Part shown: in pieces, positions 2,887 through 13,975 of the stretch | How positions within the stretch are numbered: position 1 is the first letter of the stretch | Layout of the letters: each line of letters opens with the position of its first letter | DNA from: an uncultured Methanosarcinales archaeon | GTDB lineage: Archaea > Nanobdellota > Nanobdellia > Woesearchaeales > CAYVYK01 | Reading direction: 5' to 3' | NCBI GenBank assembly: GCA_964455675.1 | Contig: CAYVYK010000007.1 | Location: forward strand, 1 to 24,457 | Length of the DNA: 24,457 nt | Translations under genes and position numbers: made by a program | The notes under the pieces: generated by a model | What the model saw: only the letters and a program-made list of their open reading frames with translations | Database searches by the model: none | Told to the model about the DNA's origin: nothing

Positions 2887-2930
2887 GGGACGGCAACGCG
2901 CCGTCCCACGCACGGTGCGGGACTAGTCCC
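2887..2930 (-). promoter_or_regulatory. Palindrome cluster immediately upstream of MVP
   Basis: Three adjacent palindromes: a perfect 8-bp hairpin GGGACGGC-aacgc-GCCGTCCC, a copy of the ACGCACGGTGCG core, and the 12-nt perfect palindrome GGGACTAGTCCC overlapping the stop of the 87-aa paralog A. The cluster lies 65-108 nt upstream of the MVP start codon. Confidence 0.5.
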
Positions 2931-3186
2931 GCGGATCTGCCTCGAGGAGCCTGCGCAGGAGAACGTTCTCCCGGCGCGTGGCCTCGAGGTCGAACAGCAC
3001 ATACTTGATCGCCGTTCGAAGAAAGTCAACTGACTCAGCGAGCGTGAGAACGCCCGTGCGAACCTTGTTCGTGACAGCATCCTCGACGCTCGGCATGCGC
3101 GGAAGCTGTGCGCGATCGGCTCCATCCGTCGGGGAAATCTCCGCGATCAGTCCCTCCAACACCTCTTGAAAGTCCTGCTCAGTCAT
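2923..3186 (-). CDS. Hypothetical 87-aa acidic, helical protein (paralog A of a tandem pair)
   Basis: ORF with AAGGAGA 5 nt upstream of the ATG. C-terminal block LRTAIKYVLFDLEATRRENVLLRRL is shared with the neighbouring gene. Confidence 0.6.
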   Translation of the reverse strand: MTEQDFQEVLEGLIAEISPTDGADRAQLPRMPSVEDAVTNKVRTGVLTLAESVDFLRTAIKYVLFDLEATRRENVLLRRLLEADPRD

Positions 3187-3266
3187 GGTACTCTCCTTTC
3201 GGCGAATGCCTGACGATTGGACTGGGCCTGGTCCTGAAGATTCCCCTCCTAGGGGGATTCTTGCAT

Positions 3267-3527
3267 CTACTCGGGCGACGGGCCCTGCTGCCGACGGAGG
3301 TTGTCCCTCTCACGGCGCGTGGCCTCGAGATCAAAGAGCATGTACTTGATCCCAAGGCGCAGGGTGTCGATCGAATCCTGTAGACGAGCGACACCAGCAC
3401 GAATTTCTTCGTGACGACGCCTCGTCTCGGCGGCAAGAGCGCGAAGGCGCGCCTGCTCGCCCGGAGGGCAGGAATCAATCATTCTTGCTGCGTCCTCAAT
3501 CCCCTTCGCTACTTCGTCTGGAGTCAT
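3267..3527 (-). CDS. Hypothetical 86-aa helical protein (paralog B of the tandem pair)
   Basis: Internal ATG at 3527 is preceded by AAGGAGA with a 6-nt spacer. It shares LRLGIKYMLFDLEATRRERDNLRR with paralog A. The longer ORF-track start at 3575 lacks an RBS. Confidence 0.6.
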   Translation of the reverse strand: MTPDEVAKGIEDAARMIDSCPPGEQARLRALAAETRRRHEEIRAGVARLQDSIDTLRLGIKYMLFDLEATRRERDNLRRQQGPSPE

Positions 3528-3744
3528 GATGGTCTCCTTCTCGGCGAAAGCTTTGAATGGAAACGATCCTATCAATCACGAACAGCTCCACGAGAGCGCC
3601 GATGAACACAACCACTCCCGTGACAGACACACAGACAAACACGACATTGCCTGCGCCCCAGCCCAGCGTCAGACCGCTTAAGCCAATCAGCCAGACGGCC
3701 AGCGACAGCAGACCGACGATGACGTACAAACCGTGCTTGGACAT
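3496..3744 (-). CDS. Small membrane protein (82 aa, two predicted TM helices)
   Basis: GAGGAG lies 5 nt upstream of the ATG. There are two long hydrophobic stretches (GLYVIVGLLSLAVWLIGLSGL and VVFVCVSVTGVVVFIGALVELFVI). Its 3' end overlaps the start of paralog B by ~32 nt. Confidence 0.5.
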   Translation of the reverse strand: MSKHGLYVIVGLLSLAVWLIGLSGLTLGWGAGNVVFVCVSVTGVVVFIGALVELFVIDRIVSIQSFRREGDHHDSRRSSEGD

Positions 3745-4331
3745 ACAGGCTCCTCTGTCAAGGATTGCGGCTGGGAGGTCGACTCACGCTCTTTTTGATA
3801 AGCGTGCACCACGAGTTCGACCTCGTCACGAAAACGCACAATCCCCTCCAGGTACCACTCGAGCGCACGACGATCCGAAAGGATTGCTCGTGGCAACAGG
3901 GCGTCCACGAGATCTTCGGCTGCCTCGTACAAATCGTCAGCAGTGCTCCCATACTTTGGAGGAGCGGTGTCCTCATAGCGCAGGAGACGATACCTCGCGA
4001 TGCACTCGCGGTACTTGACAAGATGCGCATCGCTTTTATCGACTGACTCTGCAACAACGAATAGTCCGTTCAGGACGGACTCCCAGGAGTCGAAGCTCTG
4101 GATGAGCGCGTCCTGGTACTCGTTGTGAATCACGACCTGACGCTCGTCAGCCTGTGGCGCGGTACCGAAGAAAAGGTTGAGAGGCCCGAACGACAGGTCG
4201 AAGGCGACAGGCCGCGGCGCGGGTTTCTGCTCGTACTCCGGGTGCTTGTGAAAGAAGATGTACACGATCACGAAGAACACCGGGAGCGAGAGCAAGAGGT
4301 AGATCTTGTACTTCGTTTGCATGGAATCCAT
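3687..4331 (-). CDS. Hypothetical membrane-anchored protein (214 aa; N-terminal TM plus soluble domain)
   Basis: N-terminal helix KIYLLLSLPVFFVIVYIFF is followed by a charged soluble domain. AAAGGA is upstream. The ORF tail overlaps the next gene start (3744) by ~58 nt, so the stop or start assignment of one of the two is uncertain. Confidence 0.5.
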   Translation of the reverse strand: MDSMQTKYKIYLLLSLPVFFVIVYIFFHKHPEYEQKPAPRPVAFDLSFGPLNLFFGTAPQADERQVVIHNEYQDALIQSFDSWESVLNGLFVVAESVDKSDAHLVKYRECIARYRLLRYEDTAPPKYGSTADDLYEAAEDLVDALLPRAILSDRRALEWYLEGIVRFRDEVELVVHAYQKERESTSQPQSLTEEPVCPSTVCTSSSVCCRWPSG

Positions 4332-4358
4332 TCCTTTCTAGCCGTCCGTGGCAGAGAC

Positions 4359-4802
4359 TTACTCGAACGTGAACTTGTACGACTTGCCGTTGTCGATCTT
4401 CTCGACGAAAAACGTGAACGGTGTGGGCAACTTGAGCGTCACCTTGTACGCGCCGCGGGAGGAATCCCAGATGGCATCGTAGGTGTCGCAGCGAACGGAG
4501 ATGCGGCCAGCGATCGCGTATGCGGGCTTCTGATTCTTCTCCACCTGCTGGACGACGATATCCTTGTCGACGATGATGAGGCCGACCTGATCGAACTGGG
4601 TGGCGATCTGGAGCGGCCAGGCCTCGGACGCAGTGACCGTCTGCTCGGCCGTGTCCAAGTACTTGTACACGATACCGCACGCCTTGGACATCCAGCCGAT
4701 GATACCGAGCACCATGAACATGGCAATCACTGGCGCCCAATCCTTGATGTAGTCAGAGAACTCTCTGCCAACTTCCTGGAGAGCTCCCGGTTTTCTTCCC
4801 AT
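4359..4802 (-). CDS. Hypothetical membrane-anchored protein (147 aa; N-terminal TM plus beta-rich domain)
   Basis: AAGGAG lies 7 nt upstream of the ATG. TM segment WAPVIAMFMVLGIIGWM is followed by a soluble domain. Confidence 0.6.
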   Translation of the reverse strand: MGRKPGALQEVGREFSDYIKDWAPVIAMFMVLGIIGWMSKACGIVYKYLDTAEQTVTASEAWPLQIATQFDQVGLIIVDKDIVVQQVEKNQKPAYAIAGRISVRCDTYDAIWDSSRGAYKVTLKLPTPFTFFVEKIDNGKSYKFTFE

Positions 4803-4838
4803 TGCTCAACTCCTTGGCCTATTAGCCTGCTAGGTTCC

Positions 4839-4985
4839 TTACGCGGCATGCCGCCGGTTCCGACGGGCAATGTGGACCTTCGCCTGCCGCGTCATTTTCC
4901 GACGGGGGCGAGAGTGACCACATAGTCTGCACACGGGCTGACGGCCGCCATTCATCTTGCTGCAACACTTGCATTCCCACTTCAT
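4839..4985 (-). CDS. Small C4 zinc-ribbon protein (48 aa) with a basic tail
   Basis: GAGGAGGG lies 7 nt upstream of the internal ATG (MKWECKCCSKMNGGRQPVCRLCGH...). It has a CxxC-x12-CxxC arrangement. Confidence 0.45.
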   Translation of the reverse strand: MKWECKCCSKMNGGRQPVCRLCGHSRPRRKMTRQAKVHIARRNRRHAA

Positions 4986-5005
4986 GACATGACCCTCCTC
5001 GGATG

Positions 5006-13084: not shown

Positions 13085-13112
13085 GGGACGAGGTTCACCT
13101 GAGCTTCGTCCC
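13085..13112 (+). other. Hairpin GGGACGAGG...CTTCGTCCC after the 66-aa gene (possible attenuator or terminator, no U-tract)
   Basis: The 9-bp stem has one G.U position and is followed by TTGGGGGGAAAATT. Confidence 0.3.
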
Positions 13113-13126
13113 TTGGGGGGAAAATT

Positions 13127-13170
13127 GTGACGCACGGTGCGCCACAACAGCAAACGAGCAAACAACCAGG
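13127..13170 (+). promoter_or_regulatory. Recurring element copy 3 (GTGACGCACGGTGCGCCACAACAGCAAACGAGCAAACAAC)
   Basis: It lies 56 nt upstream of the 13201 start. Confidence 0.55.
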
Positions 13171-13200
13171 GACAAAACCAGTCTCCTATAGGAGAGCCTA

Positions 13201-13620
13201 ATGACGACTCACGGTTGGGGTAAAACCATTATGCTGACGGTGATCGGCATGCTTATTGGGGCTGCTGGACTTACTCTCGCACGGGTGGCCAGCCCATCTT
13301 TTGACCTGAAGTGGAAAATCAAGGTCTCACCGTCTTCTGTTGGGTACGATCCGGCGCAATCCTGGGCGTACAACTGCATCGTTCTCGACGAGTACGTCAA
13401 GCTGGACTTCCCGGTCACGGACAAGGTGATCGCAGACCTGCGCAAGATCGTCGAGACGGAGAAGGATCCGATTGTCGTCGCAACGGCCAGGAGCATGCTC
13501 GACAGTTACAGGATGGTCGGAAGCTTCCATGCTACGCAGACCTGGCAAAACAAGCTGAGGGACGATGAGGCCAAGGCCGCAAAACAACGCGCGATCGACG
13601 CGTGGAAGGGCAACAAGTAG
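13201..13620 (+). CDS. Hypothetical membrane-anchored protein (139 aa)
   Basis: TAGGAGAG lies 4 nt upstream of the ATG. TM segment IMLTVIGMLIGAAGLTLA. Confidence 0.6.
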   Translation: MTTHGWGKTIMLTVIGMLIGAAGLTLARVASPSFDLKWKIKVSPSSVGYDPAQSWAYNCIVLDEYVKLDFPVTDKVIADLRKIVETEKDPIVVATARSMLDSYRMVGSFHATQTWQNKLRDDEAKAAKQRAIDAWKGNK

Positions 13621-13640
13621 GACAACGAACGCCTTCAATT

Positions 13641-13661
13641 GTAACGCACGGTGCGTGCAAC
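13641..13661 (+). promoter_or_regulatory. Recurring element copy 4 (variant GTAACGCACGGTGCGTGCAAC)
   Basis: It lies 33 nt upstream of the 13694 start. Confidence 0.45.
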
Positions 13662-13693
13662 TGAGCGTTCACATCAAACCGAAAGGATCCACC

Positions 13694-13924
13694 ATGACAC
13701 GAAAGCGCATTCAGGCAGAAGTCGTACGGCTGGTCACCGACCGTGAGCATCCGTACCTTGTGCTCATGCCCGTTAACAGGCAGCAGGGTGTGGACATGAA
13801 GGAGATCAGCATCGAAGTCGGTTGGTTTCACACCCAACTGCGCAGACGAGCCTTCAAGATCATCCAGCAGTCTGCCCATCACGACAACATCACGGTCGGG
13901 GAAGTGTACGAGATCGAACTCTAA
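13694..13924 (+). CDS. Small basic soluble protein (76 aa)
   Basis: AAAGGA lies 6 nt upstream of the ATG (MTRKRIQAEVVRL...). Confidence 0.5.
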   Translation: MTRKRIQAEVVRLVTDREHPYLVLMPVNRQQGVDMKEISIEVGWFHTQLRRRAFKIIQQSAHHDNITVGEVYEIEL

Positions 13925-13927
13925 CTC

Positions 13928-13975
13928 GTGACGCACGGTGCGCCACAACAGCAAACGAGCAAACAAGGACAACGT
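13928..13975 (+). promoter_or_regulatory. Recurring element copy 5 (GTGACGCACGGTGCGCCACAACAGCAAACGAGCAAACAAGG)
   Basis: It lies 48 nt upstream of the 13994 start. Confidence 0.55.

Follow-up and report, generated by a model that had tools for sequence, protein, structure and literature searches.

The locus and its recurring palindrome

The window analysed here is the whole stretch of 24,457 nt covering positions 1 to 24,457 of contig CAYVYK010000007.1 (GC 57.5%), and this text deals with a short palindrome that recurs between its genes. The window contains two divergent gene clusters: a minus-strand cluster that runs from 6385 to 24 and ends with a homologue of the major vault protein (MVP; 932/939 aa), and a plus-strand cluster that runs from 8478 to past 23743. 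The gap of ~2.1 kb between them (6386-8477) shows a GC content of 43-44% at 6601-7800, contains no convincing open reading frame (ORF) and presumably represents the main promoter/regulatory region, or is origin-like. The MVP call had been made in an earlier interpretation of the letters alone, here called the sequence-only reading, and it holds: the protein is a true MVP homologue (Pfam MVP_shoulder 6e-18, Vault_3, Band_7), and the start codon used for measuring distances in that reading, ATG 2822, agrees with the 932-aa database protein. The genes at 11.3-14.9 kb, referred to as the array, encode mostly small proteins, many of them with one N-terminal transmembrane helix, and none of these proteins could be assigned to a family. 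The palindrome is found within this array and next to the MVP gene as follows:

2905-2923: MVP-side copy CCCACGCACGGTGCGGGAC with the exact 12-nt core at 2908-2919, flanked by the MVP start (2822) on one side and, on the other, by the stop codon of a minus-strand gene for 87 aa (2923-3186)
11995-12013, plus strand: variant copy GCAAAGCACGGTGCTTTGC, a perfect palindrome with three outer-stem positions changed in both arms; it overlaps the stop of gene 11813-11995 and lies 26 nt upstream of ATG 12040
12262-12280, plus strand: perfect copy GTGACGCACGGTGCGTCAC, RNA hairpin of -10.9 kcal/mol, 48 nt upstream of ATG 12329
12829-12847, plus strand: copy GTGACGCACGGTGCGCCAC with an A.C mismatch at stem position 4, 24 nt upstream of ATG 12872
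13127-13145, plus strand: copy GTGACGCACGGTGCGCCAC, dyad extended to 23 nt (TTGTG...CACAA), 55 nt upstream of ATG 13201
13629-13672, plus strand: 44-nt hairpin, the tip of which is the variant copy GTAACGCACGGTGCGTGCA (13641-13659), 34 nt upstream of ATG 13694
13928-13946, plus strand: copy GTGACGCACGGTGCGCCAC, beginning 3 nt past the stop of the 76-aa gene, 47 nt upstream of ATG 13994
15433-15443: intragenic 11-nt core CGCACCGTGCG within a 243-aa gene, centre base inverted, covariance-model E 0.16

The exact 12-mer ACGCACGGTGCG occurs six times in the window (2908, 12265, 12832, 13130, 13644 and 13931), and at up to one mismatch nine matches are found compared to 0.30 expected, a number reached in none of 100 shuffles. 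The 19-mer GTGACGCACGGTGCGYCAC is present in four exact copies (12262, 12829, 13127 and 13928; 0.02 expected at up to three mismatches); these four near-identical copies are possibly duplicates and the counts are therefore not independent. The 9-nt centre GCACGGTGC (GCAC-G-GTGC) is common to all seven intergenic sites, the inner 11 nt of the element are invariant, and both a position weight matrix and a covariance-model scan separate the seven sites from the remaining window by a wide margin. The claim of the sequence-only reading that a palindrome with this centre recurs at seven intergenic sites is thereby confirmed by counts and by both models, and its description of the 11995 copy as a perfect palindrome is equally correct (19 nt, same 9-nt centre). 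Non-coding DNA makes up 17.7% of the window, yet it holds seven of the eight core copies. The eighth, intragenic one exists as had been claimed, with its position at 15433-15443 and not at ~15431; it is borderline and possibly of chance origin (~0.01-0.03 expected, an estimate).

All seven intergenic sites are spacers between co-directional genes. Neither the remaining ~15 spacers of the window, scanned with the position weight matrix and the covariance model, nor the sole divergent AT-rich gap (6386-8477) contains a copy of the palindrome. Between palindrome end and start codon lie 26, 48, 24, 55, 34 and 47 nt in the six array copies and 85 nt in the MVP copy; the copies are thus close upstream of starts as had been proposed, at measured values of 24-55 nt (85 nt for MVP) instead of 25-56 nt (86 nt). 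In all six array copies the centre base on the coding strand is G, in the MVP copy it is C, and the part common to the MVP copy and the array copies is restricted to the 12-nt core and some outer pairing. It was also claimed that the element itself is conserved, and this is borne out by a conservation that exceeds that of the flanks and is tied to gene starts. The palindrome family is real and locus-specific, it marks the head of cistron leaders and it also touches MVP. The simplest view takes it for a cis-acting expression signal that belongs to a known general type.

Leaders, neighbouring hairpins and the stem-loop reading

The array units follow a common order: stop codon, in some units a GC-rich hairpin, the palindrome, an A/C-rich and almost T-free leader, a GGAG-type ribosome-binding site and the start codon. 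A very stable GC-rich hairpin without U-tract precedes the palindrome in three array units. In units without this large hairpin the palindrome either adjoins the preceding stop at 0-3 nt (11995, 13928 and the minus-strand copy at 2905) or grows to the 44-nt hairpin at 13629-13672, the arms of which read GAACGC..TCA.TTG... and ...CAA.TGA GCGTTC. The copy at 2905 furthermore overlaps a 12-bp hairpin (2883-2911) of the minus-strand RNA. The leaders and hairpins that accompany the palindrome are:

12281-12299, plus strand: A/C-rich leader CAGCAAACGAGCAAACAAC, 3' of the palindrome
13146-13166, plus strand: A/C-rich leader AACAGCAAACGAGCAAACAAC
13947-13966, plus strand: A/C-rich leader AACAGCAAACGAGCAAACAA
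12199-12256, plus strand: large GC-rich hairpin without U-tract, 3' of gene 12040-12183 and 5' of the palindrome; whole spacer -64.3 kcal/mol, z -6.2
12751-12810, plus strand: paralogous large hairpin, 3' of gene 12329-12724; z -4.9
13084-13113, plus strand: hairpin AGGGACGAGGTTCA-CC-TGAGCTTCGTCCCT, 3' of gene 12872-13072

In three units the palindrome and a leader of 20-27 nt form one conserved block, and the units at 13122-13165 and 13923-13966 are 95% identical over 44 nt, while the downstream proteins show at most ~25% identity. The leader is present at 12262, 13127 and 13928 as described earlier, in forms that are not identical (CAC-CAGCAAACGAGCAAACAAC at 12262; an end in ...CAAG at 13928). 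The downstream genes had been called not obviously paralogous, which holds in part: the 139-aa and 298-aa proteins, which belong to the two most similar upstream units, are weak paralogues (~25% identity, E 3.6e-5).

Strong hairpins are present in nearly every same-strand spacer of at least 30 nt of the plus-strand cluster, so that an intercistronic hairpin is the general pattern here. Directly upstream of gene 9715, at 9680-9714, lies a canonical terminator-like hairpin tailed by TCTTT, and a hairpin with a 16-bp stem is located at 22102-22161 upstream of gene 22175 (spacer -47.8 kcal/mol). The MVP leader contains a perfect 18-bp palindrome GTCTCTATCCATAGAGAC at 2849-2866, ~25 nt upstream of the ribosome-binding site, the sequence of which has no relation to the family. 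The first gene of the plus-strand cluster carries a perfect 20-bp palindrome TGAAGTGCACGTGCACTTCA at 8882-8901, which is a weak covariance-model match (E 0.08) and looks unrelated; the 9-mer GAAGTGCAC occurs five times compared to 0.28 expected (8882-8901, also 11640, 12449 and 20689), in all cases in coding DNA (EVH/VHF peptides). A second hairpin motif, GGAC...GTCC, is not enriched in the window (20 observed, 17 expected).

The likeness of the units could also be the product of a selfish or neutral process, in which the copies are a REP/MITE-like intergenic family, or remnants of tandem gene-plus-leader duplications kept alike by gene conversion, and have no dedicated function. The four copies are 18-19/19 identical and the flanking leader is identical as well, the upstream hairpin modules are likewise duplicated and rearranged, and the 139-aa and 298-aa genes are paralogous. 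Moreover, unrelated REP-like hairpins of Acidobacteriota bear the same 19-mer, which shows that such palindromes do arise in selfish repeats. These hairpins are nested structures of the type GAGGCGGGAGCGACCCCAC...GTGGGGTCGCTCCCGCCTC with the identical 19-mer GTGACGCACGGTGCGTCAC at the tip and were found at ten loci, one of which has a group II intron D1-D4 match ~500 nt upstream. However, the exact 12-nt core at MVP stands without flanking similarity, the array copies are constant in orientation and fixed in position before the ribosome-binding site (Shine-Dalgarno), and leader plus palindrome are far better conserved than the neighbouring coding DNA. Terminal inverted repeats and target duplications are missing at the copies, an adjacent GTAG is present at 11995 only, and no transposase-like protein was found among the window proteins scanned. 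The other spacers of the window are free of copies, and in scans of GTDB and of the JGI metagenomes the only multi-copy genome was that of an Isosphaeraceae contig (L115, see below). The sequence-only reading had itself named a REP/MITE-like family as its alternative; with one orientation, a fixed position, copy-free other spacers and no dispersed family linked to the locus in the public scans, this alternative is disfavoured and we consider it clearly unlikely.

Tentatively, and with somewhat less than even confidence, we read the element as a cis-acting RNA stem-loop that opens the leader of each cistron within long same-strand transcription units. As RNA it would form an 8-bp hairpin with the invariant apex GCA-CGG-UGC (centre C in the MVP transcript), followed in the array by the unstructured A/C-rich leader and the GGAG-type ribosome-binding site. 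The hairpin would keep the highly stable 3' hairpins of the cistron before it apart from the ribosome-binding site that follows and, after processing or as structural cap, it might shield and mark the 5' end of the downstream message. The invariant apex would be the likely contact of one trans-acting factor, a protein or a nuclease, that could tune the small membrane-protein cistrons and MVP jointly. Recurrence, position and pairing potential of the copies and their compensated stems are observed; we infer that the RNA and not the DNA is the active form, that a factor would bind it and that message stability or translation would be affected.

The diverged copies retain pairing: at 11995 all three outer-stem changes are compensated, at 2905 compensation is partial, and the copy at 13641 gains ~12 flanking pairs. 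In the alignment 87.5% of the cells are paired, double changes affect three of the eight pairs, and the covariation score is reached by none of 500 shuffles (nine sequences, several of them duplication-related, with the inner three pairs never varying). The compensated changes and the extended pairing in diverged copies favour conservation of structure. Moreover, the divergent gap, in which the primary promoters of both clusters would be expected, lacks a copy, which favours RNA as well, and the absence of a TAnnnT hexamer from five of the six array spacers together with the lack of promoter-like sites argues for read-through transcription. An intrinsic terminator does not explain the element, as none of the copies has a plus-strand terminator-like site and the hairpin is followed by the A/C-rich leader and not by a U-tract; no Rfam family gave a covariance-model match at E <=1 in the window.

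Several observations weigh against a stem-loop. In three copies the coding-strand stem is interrupted by an A.C mismatch that lowers their stability (-5.8 vs -10.9 kcal/mol), and the minimum-free-energy fold of the MVP spacer takes the neighbouring hairpin and not the element. The two spacers that contain only the palindrome are unremarkable (z -0.97 and 0.10). The inner 11 nt are invariant and do not allow covariation there, and strict conservation with a dyad is equally operator-like. Recent duplication or gene conversion may have produced the four near-identical copies. Even in the AT-rich gap the promoter scan scores no better than shuffled sequence, the consensus possibly differing from that of the host, and the RNA-binding factor for the hairpin is putative only.

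Operator or stem-loop, and the link to MVP

The sequence-only reading had taken the palindrome for the operator of a dimeric transcription factor. In its present form this reading states that the dyad (half-site nnnRCGCAC, centre G) is bound by a homodimeric factor whose gene lies elsewhere and which represses, blocks or activates the small genes and MVP as a local regulon. With 19-23 bp, an odd centre and conserved half-sites (GCAC in 16/16, CGCAC in 13/16) the dyad has the size of an operator, and imperfect half-sites such as those with the A-to-G change are normal for operators. The copies reduced to the core (MVP and 15433) are weak as RNA hairpins and adequate as DNA sites, and the uncompensated A.C mismatch in three copies halves the stability of the hairpin. 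Furthermore, a position 24-85 nt upstream of start codons is fitting, and one unit, that of 12829, possesses a good -10 hexamer, TAGAAT (12818-12823), 5 nt upstream of the palindrome.

However, this unit is the only one with an upstream TAnnnT hexamer, the other five of six array units being without promoter-like elements, and the spacer of 13928 does not contain a T-containing -10-like hexamer anywhere. A consensus scan detected no sigma-70-like sites in 11300-15100, the consensus possibly not being that of the host. The divergent promoter region is without a copy, and symmetric compensated changes as in the 11995 copy and an extension to a 44-nt hairpin as in the 13641 copy are unexpected for a protein-DNA site. 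No DNA-binding domain was detected in the window proteins with Pfam, PHROGs, NCBIfam and PADLOC, a few short ORFs being outside the scan. The 76-aa protein encoded at 13694 had been suggested as binder; its AF2 model does not show a helix-turn-helix and, as a single-sequence model with pLDDT 56, is unusable, as is the single-sequence model of a 209-aa candidate (pLDDT 34), and sequence searches of the candidate binding proteins against the PDB were empty. Judged by eye, ECF-type, sigma-54, MerR-type-spacer, CRP/Rex (TGTGA...TCACA) and dif-like sites do not fit, spacing or boxes being inconsistent between copies.

With no accompanying promoter-like sites, no DNA-binding protein found among the scanned window proteins and compensated stems that fit a hairpin at least as well, the operator assignment is not supported. 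From the proposed regulon that includes MVP, the common cis-element stands, the exact 12-nt core being shared with MVP (~0.003 expected, an estimate), and its operator nature is one reading of two. We hold the operator to be a serious candidate with considerable doubt attached; the stem-loop is ranked slightly above it, and the two readings are near-equal.

Doubtful in our estimate is the further-reaching proposal that the element is the DNA or RNA recognition site of one dedicated factor, which would co-regulate a bacterial MVP with lineage-specific small membrane proteins. If true, it would provide the first regulatory handle on bacterial MVP function and suggest a membrane-associated role. 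Bacterial MVP homologues are known, and to our knowledge their function and regulation are uncharacterised. In the preprint 10.1101/872010 the words operon, promoter and genomic context do not occur. Gene clusters are often punctuated by repeated intergenic palindromes, and the case is an ordinary one otherwise; as far as seen, this palindrome family is confined to one locus of one metagenome-derived genome. It is of value mainly because it offers a testable connection of MVP to small membrane proteins of a single uncultured organism.

Relatives of the locus and comparison with known systems

The 298-aa array protein has no homologue in the database search, the 139-aa protein has only four distant repeat-protein matches among 1.84 billion representatives, and the nearest relative of the window MVP shows 41% identity. 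As judged from these searches, the array genes appear lineage-specific; neither close nor named relatives are present in public data. At 19276-23743 the genes for a 613-aa protein (NMT1/OmpA-like), a VWA protein and an OmpA-like protein of 522 aa form a conserved operon, which ABC-transporter genes follow in relatives (~45% identity); among the named family members are Omnitrophica, Planctomycetes and Gemmataceae. The relatives of this operon that were examined contain neither the small-gene array nor the motif, and together with the missing close relatives of the array proteins this makes phylogenetic footprinting impossible. The 222-aa protein (5717-6385, minus strand) ends in a PEP-CTERM sorting signal PEPATAILLAIGLLAVRRR, which implies an exosortase-bearing, Gram-negative host; the host of the window probably belongs to the PVC group (Planctomycetes-related). 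The genes at 15706-16389 and 16399-17127 are tandem paralogues (51% identity), each encoding a protein with a zinc ribbon at the N-terminus, a single transmembrane helix and a common C-terminal domain without family assignment. Scans of the window for defence systems and with NCBIfam were uninformative.

The Logan contig L113 (run SRR12133404) is identical to the window across all elements. It differs by dense mismatches in its first 108 nt (window 9402-9509) and by two single-nucleotide polymorphisms at 13533 and 13542; the mismatch block, which lies in the receiver-domain gene, marks the edge of a strain-level recombination. Neither the region nor the 51-nt unit gave a megablast/blastn match in phage or plasmid collections, no informative PHROG match was obtained for the window, and the motif scan of viral contigs resulted in single chance matches only. 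The motif scan identified 20 loci in GTDB (185,579 species genomes, 596 Gb), where the chance expectation for the 19-mer is 10-30 (an estimate), and 95 loci in JGI metagenomes. Many of these matches are located in coding DNA (e.g. WRTVRH of ABC ATPases) or in unrelated hairpins (Bacteroidales pnp leader, argR/gltB spacer, Acidobacteriota REP-like), and none of the scanned loci encodes a homologue of any window protein.

Two exact copies of the 19-mer are present in L115, a contig of an Isosphaeraceae metagenome-assembled genome. Its region 1690-5262 carries, in this order, a tyrosine recombinase gene, the 19-mer, a small transmembrane ORF, parA, and parB with the 19-mer in its 3' part; the first copy overlaps the stop of the recombinase gene. 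Both copies are parts of 42-nt inverted repeats, and phage-tail-fibre-like genes follow downstream. The locus may be an integrated element, and relatives of its ParB were not found in viral contigs.

This contig bears on a further explanation, by which a ParB-family CTP clamp, encoded elsewhere on the 109.6-kb source contig, uses the palindromes as ParB/KorB-type sites for loading, as centromere-like sites or as operators and silences or organises the neighbouring genes. L115 is the only other case with multiple exact 19-mers, these lie beside or inside parAB, and a canonical parS is missing there; the palindromic KorB operator TTTAGCGGCTAAA, which serves numerous promoters on a single replicon, has an odd length as well (PMC11790492). 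The position of the L115 copies at parAB keeps such a reading alive. However, the number of 19-mer matches in 596 Gb is close to the chance expectation, so that the L115 match could be a coincidence, and L115 and the window have no protein in common and differ in GC content (73% vs 57.5%). ParA or ParB was not found among the scanned window proteins, and a fixed position upstream of ribosome-binding sites is not a property of parS. We judge this explanation to be very unlikely. The canonical parS TGTTTCACGTGAAACA has no match at up to three mismatches in the window or in L115.

Most improbable of all is that the element is the core of an attC-like or other recombinase site of a gene-cassette array. 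Superficially, the succession of short, mutually unrelated ORFs on one strand, parted by a conserved hairpin-forming repeat, is cassette-like, and in L115 the tyrosine recombinase gene ends inside a copy. However, the R''(RYYYAAC)...R'(GTTRRRY) pair was found nowhere in the window (regular-expression search, both strands), the element has 19-23 nt (44 at most) compared to 57-141 nt for attC, and no recombinase was detected among the scanned window proteins. Moreover, a centre of 1 nt leaves no room for a crossover region of 6-8 bp. An attC site is largely refuted, boxes, size and integrase all being wanting in the window.

Compared with integron attC arrays, the locus shares small unrelated same-strand ORFs parted by structured repeats and differs by the missing R''/R' boxes, the much shorter element and the missing integrase. 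REP/BIME, ERIC and Correia elements are hairpin-forming repeats that lie in transcribed operon spacers and affect mRNA stability or processing, features that the palindrome would share. These families are dispersed genome-wide, occur in both orientations and are often paired, REPs having a GTAG flank and a RAYT gene, whereas the copies described here are clustered and co-oriented, and their place before the ribosome-binding site is constant.

The OB operator of KorB in IncP-1 plasmids (RK2) is an odd-length palindrome, TTTAGCGGCTAAA (PMC11790492). OB, OA and OC, the operators of KorB, KorA and KorC, are short palindromes that stand in front of numerous operons of the replicon, some of them runs of small genes with no assigned function, and bind these genes into a single regulon; the palindromes of this locus would resemble them. 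The locus differs in that the window encodes no KorA, KorB or ParB homologue, sequence similarity is missing and the sites have no recognisable promoters.

Cluster K mycobacteriophages carry start-associated sequences (SAS/ESAS), short conserved leaders at the ribosome-binding site that are preceded by an inverted repeat or hairpin. They are repeated before a subset of the small genes of one genome, by a mechanism that is unresolved. The same leader-plus-hairpin module repeated before small genes is seen here, with other sequences, in an uncultured PVC-like bacterium in place of an Actinobacteria phage and in a window in which phage genes were not found; the most conserved part is the hairpin and not the box proximal to the ribosome-binding site.

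Finally, CIRCE, the site of HrcA, is an inverted repeat between transcription start and start codon that acts as DNA operator and as mRNA element. It has a 9-N9-9 structure with a long spacer, is located before heat-shock operons and is widely conserved in bacteria, whereas the palindrome of this locus has a 1-nt centre and is lineage-specific. The double action of CIRCE shows that the operator and the RNA readings need not exclude each other, and by analogy a dual role in DNA and RNA is possible for the palindrome described here.

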